Positions 12,001-21,000 of a stretch of DNA of 64,000 bases are shown here, one piece after another. The stretch lies in assembly GCF_041248615.1 (NCBI RefSeq), contig NZ_CP158426.1, one strand, 5' to 3'. Every line of letters begins with the position of its first letter. The first letter of the stretch is position 1. This DNA comes from Escherichia coli (lineage in GTDB: Bacteria > Pseudomonadota > Gammaproteobacteria > Enterobacterales > Enterobacteriaceae). A program made the position numbers.

Positions 12001-15000
12001 AAACCTGCATTGCTGGATATGGCCGGACTGCGGGCCGATATTCTTTCTCCTGTCAAAGAAACCGGCACATTGCTGGGCGTGGTAAGTTCACAAGCGGCGG
12101 AACTCTGCGGTCTGAAGGCGGGCACTCCGGTGGTCGTTGGAGGAGGCGACGTGCAACTTGGTTGCCTTGGGTTAGGCGTTGTCCGTCCGGCACAAACCGC
12201 TGTTCTTGGCGGCACATTCTGGCAGCAAGTTGTAAACTTAGCCGCGCCGGTGACAGACCCAGAAATGAACGTGCGCGTTAATCCTCATGTTATTCCTGGC
12301 ATGGTACAAGCTGAATCTATAAGCTTTTTTACCGGACTCACCATGCGCTGGTTCCGCGATGCTTTCTGTGCCGAAGAAAAACTGATTGCCGAACGTTTAG
12401 GCATCGACACCTATACGCTGCTTGAAGAGATGGCAAGTCGGGTGCCGCCTGGGTCGTGGGGCGTAATGCCGATATTCTCCGACAGAATGCGCTTTAAAAC
12501 CTGGTATCACGCTGCGCCTTCCTTTATTAATTTGTCTATTGATCCGGATAAATGTAACAAAGCGACATTGTTCCGTGCGCTGGAAGAAAATGCGGCGATA
12601 GTATCAGCGTGTAACTTGCAGCAAATCGCTGATTTCTCGAATATTCATCCTTCATCGTTAGTCTTTGCAGGCGGAGGTTCAAAAGGGAAATTATGGAGTC
12701 AAATTCTCGCTGATGTCTCGGGATTACCCGTCAATATTCCGGTGGTCAAAGAAGCCACTGCATTAGGATGTGCCATTGCAGCTGGCGTCGGTGCCGGAAT
12801 TTTTTCATCAATGGCAGAAACCGGAGAACGCCTGGTTCGCTGGGAACGGACGCACACACCAGACCCGGAAAAGCATGAACTTTATCAGGATTCACGCGAT
12901 AAGTGGCAGGCAGTTTATCAGGATCAGCTGGGGCTGGTTGATCACGGGCTGACGACGTCGTTATGGAAAGCGCCTGGGTTATAGTTTCATTGACAGCCAC
13001 ATCATGATGACCGTGGCTGTTAGTTTTTGAGTATTGGTATTCTCATTTCCCTTCTTTTAGAGCTGGTTTGTTAAATGCCAGCTTGCAGATTCATCGTTCC
13101 ATCGCCAGTAATATATTCAAGGGGAAATTGCTATTTTTCTTAAAATATTAAGCATAACCCTTATTTTATAGCGAATATTCCTAAAGGCACAAATGAATGA
13201 AAAAGAGTTTTAATAGAGTTCTTTTTTAGCAATTAATGCTATTCTTTGTTAAATATGATGATGGTAATTTTCTTATTAAAAGAAACATTTTTCTTATTAA
13301 GCAACAATAACTCATGGTTCATTTTTAAATAAAATAAGAACTATGCAATTTTTAATTTATCAATTCGAAAGTATTAGCAAATTAGCCAAATTGACACCTT
13401 CCCACCTCCAACCAACACTCAATACAGACCTCTGACAATTTAATAAGTTTCATTTTTAATGTCTGACGACTCATCTCTTTCGTGGCTGTATTGTTTGTAT
13501 ATGGAGCGTTTATATGAATAGAATCTATCGCGTGATATGGAATTGCACCCTACAGGCATTTCAGGTCTGCTCGGAATTAACTCGCAGGGTAGGTAAAACA
13601 TCGACGGTTAATTTGCGTAAATCCTCTGGGCTGACAACGAAATTCAGTAGATTGACGCTGGGTGTTTTGCTGGCACTAAGCGGTTCAGCGTCTGGTGCGA
13701 GTCTGGAAGTTGATAATGATCAGATTACCAATATTGATACTGATGTTGCTTATGATGCCTACCTGGTTGGCTGGTATGGCACTGGAGTGCTTAATATTTT
13801 GGCTGGCGGTAATGCCTCCTTAACCACTATTACTACCAGCGTCATTGGTGGTAATGAGAACTCGAAGGGCACCGTTAATGTTTTGGGTGGCACCTGGCGA
13901 TTGTATGATAGCGGAAATAATGCAAGGCCTTTAAATGTGGGCCAATCCGGAACGGGGATGCTGAATATTAAACAGAAGGGGCACGTTGATGGAGGCTATT
14001 TAAGATTAGGTACTCAAGCTGTAGGCGTCGGGATGGTTAATGTTGAGGGAGAGGACTCGGTTCTGACGACGGAGTTATTCGAAATAGGTAGCTATGGCAC
14101 AGGTTCATTAAATATTACGGATAAGGCTTATGTCACGAGTTCAATCGTCGCCATTTTAGGCTATCAGACGGGCAGTAATGGCCAGGTTGTCGTTGAAAAG
14201 GGCGGTGAGTGGCTAATAAAAAATAACGATTCCTCAATTGAATTTCAAATTGGTAATCAAGGAACTGGGGAAGCGACTATTCGCGAGGGTGGGCTGATTA
14301 CGGCTGAAAATACGATTATCGGTGGCAATGCCACCGGTATCGGAACCCTGAATGTGCAGGATCAAGACTCTGTCATCACGGTACGCAGACTCTATAATGG
14401 ATATTTCGGTAATGGCACAGTCAATATTTCCAATAATGGACTGATTAATAATAAAGAATATTCATTGGTGGGCGTTCAGGACGGTTCCCACGGTGTCGTC
14501 AACGTGACTGATAAAGGGCATTGGAATTTCCTCGGAACGGGCGAAGCTTTCCGCTATATCTATATCGGTGATGCTGGCGATGGTGAACTTAATGTCTCGA
14601 GTGAAGGCAAAGTAGATTCGGGAATTATCACTGCGGGGATGAAAGAAACAGGCACAGGCAACATTACTGTTAAGGATAAGAACTCCGTTATCACTAATCT
14701 CGGAACTAATCTTGGTTATGACGGCCACGGCGAAATGAATATCAGTAATGAGGGGCTTGTTGTCAGCAACGGAGGAAGTTCACTCGGTTATGGAGAAACC
14801 GGCGTCGGGAAGGTTAGCATCACCACGGGGGGGATGTGGGAGGTCAATAAGAATGTCTATACCACCATTGGTGTTGCGGGCGTCGGAAACCTCAATATTA
14901 GCGATGGCGGTAAGTTTGTATCGCAAAATATTACTTTTTTGGGCGATAAAGCAAGCGGTATCGGCACACTGAACCTGATGGATGCGACATCATCGTTCGA

Positions 15001-18000: not shown

Positions 18001-21000
18001 CTCGCTGTTTAGCCATCGCTTACACGACCGTCTGGGTGAGCCGCAGTATACAGATTCACTGCATTCTCAGGGTTCGGCAAGCAGTATGTGGATGCGTCAT
18101 GTCGGAGGGCACGAACGTTCAAGGGCCGGTGACGGTCAGCTAAATACTCAGGCTAACCGCTATGTATTGCAGCTAGGCGGCGATTTGGCGCAGTGGAGTA
18201 GCATCGCGCAGGATCGCTGGCATCTCGGCGTCATGGCAGGCTATGCCAATCAGCACAGTAATACTCAGAGTAATCGTGTGGGTTATAAATCGGATGGGCG
18301 CATCAGCGGGTACAGCGCTGGGATTTACGCGACCTGGTATCAGAACGATGCGAATAAGACCGGCGCTTATGTTGACAGCTGGGCGCTGTATAACTGGTTT
18401 GATAACAGCGTCAGTTCCGATAACCGTTCTGCTGACGACTATGATTCTCGCGGTGTGACGGCCTCTGTTGAGGGTGGGTATACCTTTGAAGCGGGAACAT
18501 TTAGCGGCAGCGAAGGGACGCTGAATACCTGGTACGTCCAGCCACAGGCGCAAATCACCTGGATGGGTGTGAAAGATTCTGACCATACCCGGAAAGACGG
18601 AACACGCATTGAAACGGAAGGCGACGGAAACGTGCAAACGCGACTTGGGGTGAAAACCTACCTGAACAGTCATCACCAGCGTGACAATGGTAAACAGCGT
18701 GAGTTCCAGCCTTACATTGAAGCGAACTGGATCAACAACAGCAAAGTCTACGCCGTGAAGATGAATGGTCAAACCGTAAGCCGTGATGGTGCGCGTAATC
18801 TCGGTGAAGTACGTACCGGGGTTGAGGCGAAAGTAAATAACAACCTTAGCCTGTGGGGGAATGTCGGTGTGCAACTAGGTGATAAAGGCTATAGCGATAC
18901 TCAGGGCATGCTGGGTGTGAAATATAGCTGGTAAACCGTATAAGCCGCATGTCGAAGATGCATGCGGCTTAATATTGCCGACTTCAAACGACTTTTAAAT
19001 CCTCCTTTTTATCCGCGATCGCGGATATCGCAGCGTTTATCCCGTAGAGCGGATAAGATGTGTTTCCAGATTGACTTTATCCTCACTAAAGGATAAAACT
19101 GATAATATCCCCTTGAGCGGATAAATTTGCTGTGGACGTATGACATGATGAGCTTTCAGAAGATCTATAGCCCAACGCAATTAGCGAATGCAATGAAACT
19201 GGTTCGTCAGCAAAATGGCTGGACGCAGAGCGGGCTGGCGAAAAAAATCGGCATTAAGCAGGCGACAATTTCCAATTTCGAAAACAACCCTGACAATACC
19301 ACGCTGACGACATTTTTTAAGATTTTACAGTCGCTTGAACTCTCAATGACGCTATGCGACACGAAAAATGCCTCGCCAGAATCAACAGAACAGCAAGATC
19401 TGGAGTGGTAATGCCTAAACTTGTCACTTGGATGAACAACCAGCGGGTAGGCGAGTTAACGAAGTTAGCCAATGGCGCGCACACCTTTAAGTATGCACCG
19501 GAGTGGTTAGCCAACCGTTATGCCAGACCGTTATCACTTTCGCTGCCATTGCAGAGGGGGAATATCACCTCTGATGCTGTATTTAACTTCTTCGATAACC
19601 TGCTACCCGATAGCCCGATTGTACGTGACCGGATCGTTAAACGTTATCATGCTAAATCCAGACAACCGTTTGATTTATTGTCAGAAATAGGGCGAGATAG
19701 CGTTGGTGCCGTAACGTTATTACCCGAAAATGAAACCATAACGCGCCCGATAATGGCATGGGAACAGCTCACTGAAGCCAGGCTTGAAGAAGTATTAACG
19801 GCTTATAAAGCAGATATCCCTCTGGGCATGATTAGAGAAGAAAATGACTTTCGCATCTCGGTTGCTGGCGCGCAGGAGAAGACAGCGCTGCTCAGAATAG
19901 GCAATGACTGGTGCATTCCGAAAGGAATAACGCCGACGACGCACATCATTAAATTACCGATTGGCGAAATCAGGCAGCCCAATGCGACGCTCGATCTCAG
20001 CCAAAGCGTTGATAATGAGTATTACTGTCTGCTGCTGGCGAAAGAACTTGGGTTGAATGTGCCGGACGCAGAAATCATTAAAGCGGGAAATGTGCGCGCG
20101 TTAGCGGTCGAACGTTTTGACAGGCGTTGGAATGCTGAGCGAACGGTTTTACTTCGCTTGCCACAGGAGGATATGTGTCAGACATTCGGTTTACCTTCAT
20201 CGGTGAAATATGAATCAGATGGAGGCCCAGGCATCGCGCGGATCATGGCTTTTTTGATGGGGTCCAGCGAGGCGCTGAAAGATCGCTATGATTTTATGAA
20301 GTTTCAGGTGTTCCAGTGGTTGATTGGCGCAACGGATGGCCATGCAAAAAACTTCTCCGTATTTATTCAGGCTGGCGGCAGTTATCGACTCACGCCATTT
20401 TACGACATCATTTCAGCATTTCCGGTATTGGGTGGCGCAGGAATACACATCAGCGATCTCAAACTGGCAATGGGGCTTAACGCATCCAAAGGCAAAAAAA
20501 CGGCAATCGATAAAATTTATCCGCGACATTTTCTGGCGACAGCAAAGGTGCTGAAATTTCCGGAAGTGCAGATGCATGAAATCCTGAGTGACTTTGCCAG
20601 AATGATTCCGGCAGCACTGGATAACGTGAAGACTTCATTACCGACAGATTTTCCGGAGAACGTGGTGACGGCAGTTGAAACCAATGTGTTGAGGTTGCAC
20701 GGCCGGTTAAGCCGAGAATACGGTATTAAGTAAGATATGGGGTTTTGGTCGTTGTTAATGAGCAGGACAATCATGACCGCCAACGACTGGATTCTCCCTT
20801 GGTTTATGTTGGTGCGCATAATGTATATTATGTTAAATGTGGTGGGTTTGTTCTTAAGTTCATGTGTTCCGCTCTTTCAGTAGCTTAACTGATGAATCAG
20901 TCAGCAGCTCTTGCCGTGCAAGCTACGCGGCGGTTCGTACCAGATTGGCCACCTCCATCTCCTGGTTCGCTTTCCCCTCCCCCCGGTAAACCTCACCCAA

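Follow-up and report, generated by a model that had tools for sequence, protein, structure and literature searches.

An intact yneO orthologue of Escherichia coli encodes an AIDA-I-type autotransporter and candidate adhesin

Background

Does an uninterrupted copy of a gene that is broken in the laboratory strain K-12 encode a working surface protein, or is it a relic that has simply not been hit yet? The question is raised by one locus in a 64-kb stretch of Escherichia coli DNA (the window; all coordinates count along this whole stretch), where a single open reading frame (ORF) of 1806 codons occupies the position of the K-12 pseudogene yneO. We put a probability of roughly 0.8 on the reading that this ORF is an intact orthologue of K-12 yneO and codes for a classical (type Va) autotransporter of the AIDA-I type, most likely a surface adhesin or aggregation factor. 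The gene, its family model, the distribution of its intact and broken copies and the exact protein sequence are already on record in public databases and in the 2008 genome paper of strain SE11 (Oshima et al. 2008, PMC2608844).

An uninterrupted gene at the yneO position

13514-18934, plus strand: complete coding sequence (CDS) of the ECSE_1600/YneO autotransporter; ATG start, 1806 amino acids (aa) and a stop codon, no internal stop

A first-pass annotation of the window had reported an uninterrupted ORF of this length at these coordinates, and translation indeed runs through them with neither stop nor frameshift. The gene order is lsrR-lsrK-gene-hipB-hipA, which is the place of K-12 yneO (ydeK b1510 plus ydeU b1509), and the arrangement lsrRK-gene-hipBA is common to every fetched locus in which the 5' end of the gene is retained; in the O177:H21 locus the upstream side has been swapped for IS1 and Tn3/mer sequence. 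The NCBIfam model NF011422 ('ECSE_1600 family autotransporter') covers positions 1-1806 of 1806 with a score of 4129 bits, against a cutoff of 2335. E. coli TUM14771 has the 6.4-kb segment that carries the gene with 100% identity, and RefSeq lists its CDS as WP_001327996.1, ECSE_1600 family autotransporter; the exact window protein is present on 293 public contigs. ECSE_1600 of the commensal strain SE11 itself has the same length of 1806 aa; the window allele is about 2-3% divergent from it in DNA, an allelic difference only.

The same annotation had taken K-12 yneO to be disrupted at this position and had proposed an alignment that would locate the lesion. The MC1061 copy is in fact annotated as 'frameshifted', and it differs from the window gene by 144 substitutions (97.3% nucleotide identity) and by a single insertion of one nucleotide in a run of G. 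The extra base lies at gene nt ~3948-3955 and turns the in-frame G7 (gene nt 3948-3954) into G8, with a stop after codon 1325. The passenger is thereby parted from the barrel, and the product is as long as the former 'YdeK' (1325 aa). The same G8 haplotype is found in MG1655 and further K-12 derivatives, whereas the alleles closest to K-12, those of Z1323PEC0012 (2 single-nucleotide polymorphisms (SNPs) in 5.4 kb) and of 63-2 and HUE1 (4 SNPs each), are all intact with G7, so that the K-12 frameshift, a change from G7 to G8, is evidently recent.

The divergence between the window and K-12 is 2.4-3.4% in lsrR, lsrK, hipB and hipA, as it is in the yneO gene; hence the strain belongs to another lineage and the gene itself is not unusually divergent. 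Hyper-divergence or diversifying selection specific to the gene is ruled out by this equality with the flanks and by ratios of nonsynonymous to synonymous substitution (dN/dS) of 0.13-0.20. The most divergent part of the locus is the spacer between the gene and hipB (18935-19144), with 89.7% identity to K-12 and a length difference of 14 nt; the upstream spacer is 94% identical.

Domain architecture and relatives

The 1806 residues divide into the following parts.

13514-13699, plus strand: extended (ESPR) signal peptide, aa 1-47, with the hydrophobic core that follows it; PF13018, E=5.8e-15
13745-15445, plus strand: N-terminal repeat region of the passenger, aa 78-644; ~20 coils, each of ~24 aa, of the TIGR04393 type
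15446-17506, plus strand: central passenger, aa 645-1331, with PATR repeats; three PATR matches (E=1.4e-8) and two of TIGR02601
17507-17827, plus strand: autochaperone (AC_1/pertactin-like), aa 1332-1438; PF18883, E=7.9e-26, overlapping PF03212, E=3.9e-10
17828-18085, plus strand: putative linker from autochaperone to barrel, aa 1439-1524; contains a proline-rich stretch and the predicted pore-spanning segment; aligns to 4mee
18086-18931, plus strand: beta-barrel translocator, aa 1525-1806, ending in Y-S-W; PF03797, and TIGR01414 at E=2.2e-122

Every feature that the first-pass annotation had described is recovered by these searches. The Pfam ESPR match bears out its extended signal peptide, and the barrel ending in W is found as a PF03797 beta-domain over aa 1525-1784 (E=1.4e-41, 1-254 of 255 profile positions) in a protein whose last residues are GVKYSW; the failure to detect such a domain, which it had named as the outcome that would speak against it, did not occur. 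It had also counted about 18 degenerate repeats of the form GTGxLN(I/V) between 13770 and 15440. A coil profile that we built from instances of the motif G-x-G-x-[LVI]-N-[IV] gives 17 strong and 3 weak copies over 13745-15445, so number and place hold, while the strict GTGxLN[IV] form accounts for 3 copies only. The NCBIfam model TIGR04393 ('T5SS/PEP-CTERM-associated repeat'), whose consensus is a double coil of 49 residues, matches 9 double units in this region (E=5.4e-48).

The hydrophobic stretch after the ESPR reads LTLGVLLALSGSASGA, and by the -3/-1 rule the signal peptide would be cleaved after ...SGSASGA, at about aa 62. The database annotations that make the protein a lipoprotein ('putative lipoprotein YdeK', 'barrel domain-containing lipoprotein') were dropped, since LLALSGSASGAS has no cysteine lipobox. 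Two ORFs with TTG starts lie antisense to the gene (17015-17725, minus strand, 236 aa; 18173-18874, minus strand, 233 aa); they come from a mechanical ORF list, and nothing points to real genes.

The C-terminal third places the protein near AIDA-I of E. coli 2787. The AIDA-I transport unit (4MEE) is homologous in autochaperone, linker and 12-stranded barrel, with E=2.7e-87 over aa 1345-1806, and it is this homology that suggests the role of aa 1439-1524 as a linker. The two proteins share the extended type of signal peptide and a passenger that is beta-helical; the passenger sequences, however, are unrelated, and the full-length AIDA-I model NF033176 scores 354 bits against its cutoff of 1200, aligning only with aa 1298-1805. 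The coils also differ, being about 24 residues long in YneO and, as we take it, about 19 in AIDA-I. Structures of IcsA give a further match, the autochaperone (3ml3) at E=1.3e-17 and the passenger (5ke1) aligned to aa 1195-1457. The autotransporter adhesins MisL and ShdA of Salmonella and YfaL/EhaC of E. coli have related translocators, but their NCBIfam models match only the C-terminal third, in partial alignments that range from aa 1309-1806 to aa 1480-1806, and fall far below cutoff (462 against 1297 bits for MisL, 218 against 2249 for ShdA, 200 against 1459 for YfaL/EhaC).

The N-terminal end has relatives of another kind. Its ~580 residues match 2884 representative proteins at E<=1e-3, typically with 30-38% identity. 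These are different proteins, of 1000-3900 aa, some of which end in a PEP-CTERM sorting tail and not in a barrel; among the distant relatives of the repeat region are proteins whose consensus end is PEP-CTERM-like (PEPxxxxLL...RRR). Such tails indicate that the same solenoid repeat is used with another surface-anchoring system. Among the best 150 matches to the repeat region, none falls between ~38% and ~73% identity, and this gap suggests that the YneO family proper is restricted to Escherichia and Shigella.

Fold and probable function of the passenger

An AlphaFold2 model of aa 63-700, built on an alignment of 27 relatives in the TIGR04393 region, is a regular all-beta solenoid with short strands (pLDDT 90.3, pTM 0.90), uninterrupted and with no globular insert. 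We therefore predict with high confidence that the passenger is beta-helical from aa 63 to about aa 680. In a Foldseek search of the Protein Data Bank (PDB), the top matches of this model are Ag43 (7KOH, 4KH3, 7KOB, 7KO9) and TibA (4Q1Q), each at a probability of 1.00, with E between 9e-6 and 1e-4; the SPATE proteases are far weaker (E>=0.017), and so are other beta-helices. Ag43 and TibA are right-handed beta-solenoids without globular inserts, like the N-terminal passenger model, although their repeat length differs from that of YneO. Since the solenoid comes closest to these self-associating adhesins, and since the intact alleles are under purifying selection (see below), a candidate role in adhesion or biofilm formation is reasonable, and by this analogy YneO is probably an adhesin or an aggregation or biofilm factor.

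Several observations weigh against such a role. Against Ag43 and TibA the model has low TM-scores (0.23-0.52) and an identity of 13-15%. A Pfam scan of aa 63-700 finds no domain, and the whole passenger, aa 63-1331, has no sequence match at E<=1 to any solved structure, so that no relatedness in sequence to the self-associating autotransporters Ag43, AIDA-I and TibA is seen. The central passenger (aa 645-1331) reaches a pLDDT of only 45.9 in an AlphaFold2 model from a shallow alignment of 8 close orthologues. AIDA-I and TibA are encoded next to a heptosyltransferase of the aah/tibC type, whereas the YneO locus, with lsrK and hipB as neighbours, has no annotated glycosyltransferase at the locus itself. 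The AIDA-I self-cleavage site is, as we assume from its presumed residue numbers, S-A; the YneO residues aligned to it are K-P, which carries little weight with a numbering of this kind. Finally, we found no functional study of YneO in the literature, subscription-journal surveys being outside this coverage, and adhesion is thus an analogy.

If the protein works as its architecture suggests, the ESPR signal peptide would direct export through the Sec pathway, and the C-terminal 12-stranded barrel would insert into the outer membrane via BAM/TAM. Insertion of the barrel by this route and the steps of secretion are established for the autotransporter family. The passenger of ~1270 residues would then be threaded out with its C-terminus first, and the autochaperone would nucleate its folding into a long beta-solenoid, which we estimate at roughly 50 coils and ~25 nm from ~24 residues and 4.8 Å per coil. 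The solenoid would stay on the cell surface and there act most likely as an adhesin or as a factor of cell aggregation or biofilm formation.

Intact and broken copies

In the genome paper of SE11, ECSE_1600 is a pertactin-motif autotransporter of 1806 aa, intact in SE11 and also in HS, broken in MG1655, E24377A and O157 Sakai, and missing from the B2 strains CFT073, UTI89 and 536 (PMC2608844). In complete genomes of E. coli, at least 80% of the 6.4-kb segment is present in 3,886 of 5,426, and the window allele is a minority haplotype (14 of 5343 records at least 99% identical over 6.4 kb). To see the state of the gene, 30 complete E. coli records were taken at even steps down the ranking of matches to the segment, and their status was read from the annotation. 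Ten are intact, 12 are pseudogenes, truncated or interrupted by an insertion sequence (IS), 2 gave no call, and 6 lack the gene, with the hipB flank alone present; about 40% of the sampled genomes that bear the gene thus have it intact. In the protein collection, full-length products form clusters of 5,726 and 18,868 members, and truncated products clusters of 8,672, 1,094 and 825. Sample and cluster sizes together indicate that an intact copy is common, and an intact YneO is therefore an ordinary feature of wild E. coli.

It is equally true, and counts on the other side, that about half of the gene-bearing genomes have a broken copy and that phylogroup B2 is without the gene. So many broken copies, together with the absence from B2, mean that YneO is dispensable in many lineages. 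Besides frameshifts, which are treated below, the lesions comprise insertions of IS1 and IS3, a stop at codon 17 and deletions inside the gene. Many of the deletions are in-frame and leave proteins of 1443-1714 aa, several of them without the autochaperone. An organised variation in repeat number was considered as the source of these shorter proteins and ruled out, as the deletions are sporadic and lie at different places.

Some database entries are fusions: an FGGY kinase domain, from the lsrK side, is present in products of 1975 and 1924 aa, and HipA domains in one of 1953 aa. They are presumably products of deletions or frameshifts that joined adjacent ORFs. The neighbours are themselves broken at times, with an internal stop in hipA of 504239 and in lsrK of RM9088. 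One partial member (283 aa) of a truncated-product cluster is labelled Pseudomonas aeruginosa and comes from a contig of 851 bases; the label is probably due to contamination or mislabelling.

Relic or maintained gene

The alternative that survives best is that the window copy owes its intact state to chance, no lesion having reached it so far, and is a cryptic, H-NS-silenced relic that decays neutrally and makes no contribution to fitness. Its attraction is plain from the distribution: 12 of the 24 gene-bearing genomes in the sample have frameshifts, nonsense codons, IS insertions or truncations, sporadic in-frame deletions are many and some of them take out the autochaperone, truncated products are common (the clusters of 8672, 1094 and 825), B2 strains do without the gene, and the K-12 promoter is marked as H-NS-associated (see below). 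The substitution pattern tells otherwise. By the method of Nei and Gojobori, dN/dS among eight intact alleles, whose synonymous sites diverge by as much as 9%, is 0.13-0.20, with 0.29 for one very close pair, where neutral decay would be expected to give about 1. The constraint includes the passenger (0.12-0.18) along with the autochaperone and linker (0-0.04) and the barrel (~0.13). The values for YneO are higher than those of the flanking genes (lsrK 0.03, lsrR 0.05, hipA 0.10), which does not help our reading. Yet even clusters only 85-86% identical hold to exactly 1806 aa, and the lesions look recent, as in K-12, whose closest alleles, 2-4 SNPs away, are intact. The low ratios and the kept length argue for purifying selection, somewhat relaxed, and not for neutral decay. 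Judged from these sequence comparisons, the intact YneO alleles are maintained by purifying selection, and we consider the neutral relic unlikely.

Poly-G tracts as probable weak points of the gene

In 20 aligned full-length alleles every frameshift falls in a run of G, with gains and losses of bases both represented. Three such places have frameshift variants.

14827-14833, plus strand: G7 run, gene nt 1314-1320; no other G/C run in the window reaches 7
17344-17351, plus strand: position of tract A, gene nt 3831-3838; GGGTGGTG in the window, an interrupted, synonymous form
17468-17474, plus strand: position of tract B, gene nt 3955-3961; GGGGGGA in the window, interrupted

The tract at gene nt ~1314 is in frame as G6 or G7 and frameshifted as G5 or G8: G8 is found in 2020N21-110 and G5, derived from G6, in 2013C-4991, both of them pseudogenes. 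Tract A is an in-frame G8 in K-12-type alleles, with frameshift variants G6, G7 and G9, whose truncated products occur on 366 to at least 1000 contigs. Tract B is an in-frame G7 in HS-type alleles, with frameshift variants G6 and G8, the latter being the K-12 lesion; its context is CCT-G7-CAC in intact HS-type alleles, CCT-G8-CAC in K-12 and CCAGGGGGGACAC (17465-17477) in the window. Exact-haplotype counts for tract B are 1165 genomes with G7, 389 with G8 (many of them K-12 derivatives) and 41 with G6. A fourth run, at gene nt 774 (14287-14293), is also interrupted in the window allele. Point substitutions break up three of the four tracts in this allele, which therefore lacks most of the poly-G weak points.

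The O157:H7 frameshift has another origin: shortly after tract B, at the equivalent of window ~17495-17505 (SRCC 1675), 8 bp are duplicated in tandem (AATCGGCG); a length of +8 occurs in 4 of 60 evenly spaced records. Papers on experimental evolution that mention yneO/ydeK report IS2 insertions or a large indel and not changes in the tracts.

The truncated products are widespread as exact sequences in contigs drawn from NCBI, ENA, JGI and Logan. The 1325-aa product of K-12, one of 1302 aa, one of 1289 aa and one of 445 aa (the G8 state of the tract at nt 1314) each occur on at least 1000 contigs, one of 1288 aa on 366 and a second one of 1302 aa on 96. Errors of long-read assembly are excluded by these numbers (96 to at least 1000 contigs) as a general cause of the tract variants, even if individual -1 calls may still be errors; the variants are real and clonally stable. 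The simplest reading is that poly-G runs are mutational weak points that dominate loss of function in a dispensable gene, so that repeated loss of YneO would occur mostly by slippage of +1 or -1 in these tracts.

A more elaborate reading makes the gene a contingency locus, in which the tracts serve as reversible slipped-strand switches for phase variation of an adhesin and the window allele is locked in the ON state. A tract that changes the frame and varies in length between close strains is indeed seen in K-12-type and HS-type alleles, the window keeping only the G7 at 14827-14833. That frameshifts are confined to G tracts, in both directions, and that alleles 0-3 SNPs apart differ in tract length would fit such switching, as would the haplotype counts of tract B given above. 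HS-type alleles, furthermore, have 3 runs of at least 7 G where 0.53 are expected from shuffling of synonymous codons (P=0.016), an enrichment that is post hoc and marginal and is absent from the window allele (1 run, P=0.42). Phase variation through homopolymer tracts is an established trait of autotransporters in Bordetella, Haemophilus and other genera, and in the phase-variable autotransporters of Bordetella, Haemophilus and Neisseria the frameshifting G/C runs likewise lie in coding sequence (e.g. PMC1891110). By comparison, the YneO tracts are short (6-8 bases) and their OFF states clonally stable. For E. coli with proficient mismatch repair, a run of 7-8 G is a short one to support efficient switching, and we are aware of hardly any documented phase variation by poly-G slippage among E. 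coli autotransporters. The OFF products recur unchanged on hundreds to at least 1000 contigs, so these states have been inherited stably through clonal expansions, with no rapid flipping; several alleles carry two or three lesions, which one step could not reverse, and some of the -1 calls may be long-read assembly errors. A true phase-variation switch is not favoured, and we hold it to be distinctly improbable.

A third alternative, a passenger with some other activity (a toxin, an enzyme, or a factor of immune evasion or serum resistance), could appeal to the lack of sequence-level similarity to any characterised adhesin, to the 687 central residues without an interpretable model and to the proteases and other enzymes among autotransporter passengers with a beta-helical stalk (review PMC9289746), but is very improbable, as neither Pfam nor NCBIfam detects a catalytic domain anywhere in aa 63-1331, the modelled part is a continuous solenoid, and the nearest folds are adhesins and not SPATE proteases.

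Expression signals and neighbouring genes

The preferred reading, an intact and selected autotransporter, leaves the matter of its expression. The signals around the gene are these.

13140-13431, plus strand: AT-rich upstream region of the spacer between lsrK and the gene; GC content 0.31 in 13200-13599 against ~0.5 in the flanks
13432-13460, plus strand: sigma-70 promoter-like site CTGACA-17-TTTAAT, identical to the 'constitutive promoter' of K-12 yneO
13503-13506, plus strand: Shine-Dalgarno sequence GGAG, 7 nt before the ATG, as read from the sequence
18941-18971, plus strand: terminator-like stem-loop of 12 bp, 7 nt past the stop codon, followed by a weak U tail; from RNA folding

The spacer that follows lsrK is 529 nt long and AT-rich. 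The promoter of K-12 yneO was assigned by genomic SELEX and is marked 'HNS' (Shimada 2014, PMC3946193); the predicted promoter in the window was found only by matching this published site, of which there is one exact match in the window where 0 are expected. A scan with consensus models for promoters and terminators gave no more sites than in shuffled sequence and no promoter-like site in the upstream spacer. The stem-loop was missed by that scan because it lacks a run of T; folding of 18925-19060 gives -44.1 kcal/mol (z=-3.8). An Rfam scan of 12900-19450 detected no known RNA element.

By extension from the K-12 data, the AT-rich spacer is a probable H-NS-bound silencing region, and under laboratory conditions expression of YneO would probably be silenced by H-NS. 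Four HipB operators (TATCCN8GGATA) lie at 19010-19123, ahead of hipB, as in K-12. With a promoter in front, a hairpin after the stop codon and then the HipB operators, the gene looks monocistronic; it would be transcribed as a single unit from the sigma-70 promoter 54 nt upstream, within the probably silenced spacer. At 32489-32506, ~13 kb from the HipB operators, the pattern TATCCN8GGATA has a fifth exact match, where chance would give 0.04 matches in the window. Downstream of hipA (20734-22400), the window has a gene for a LysR-family regulator on the minus strand (21132-22031), a gene content unlike that of K-12; K-12 and many other strains have there a fragment of an HTH gene and ydeT/ydeR fimbrial remnants or a fimA-like gene.

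Implications for E. coli autotransporters

At 1806 aa, YneO/ECSE_1600 is among the largest autotransporters of E. coli, and the scarcity of functional work on it is probably due to the dead copy in the laboratory strain. The defect of K-12 is one extra G, and deletion of a single base could repair it. The dominance of slippage at a few poly-G runs in the loss of this gene calls for caution in pseudogene calling and in the use of long-read assemblies. Should low-rate switching after all take place at the three or four poly-G runs of the common K-12/HS-type haplotype, alleles whose tracts are broken by synonymous or conservative substitutions would represent locked-ON variants, at an advantage wherever steady expression is of benefit. 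Purifying selection on the intact alleles makes these proteins worth testing as factors of colonisation or biofilm formation.

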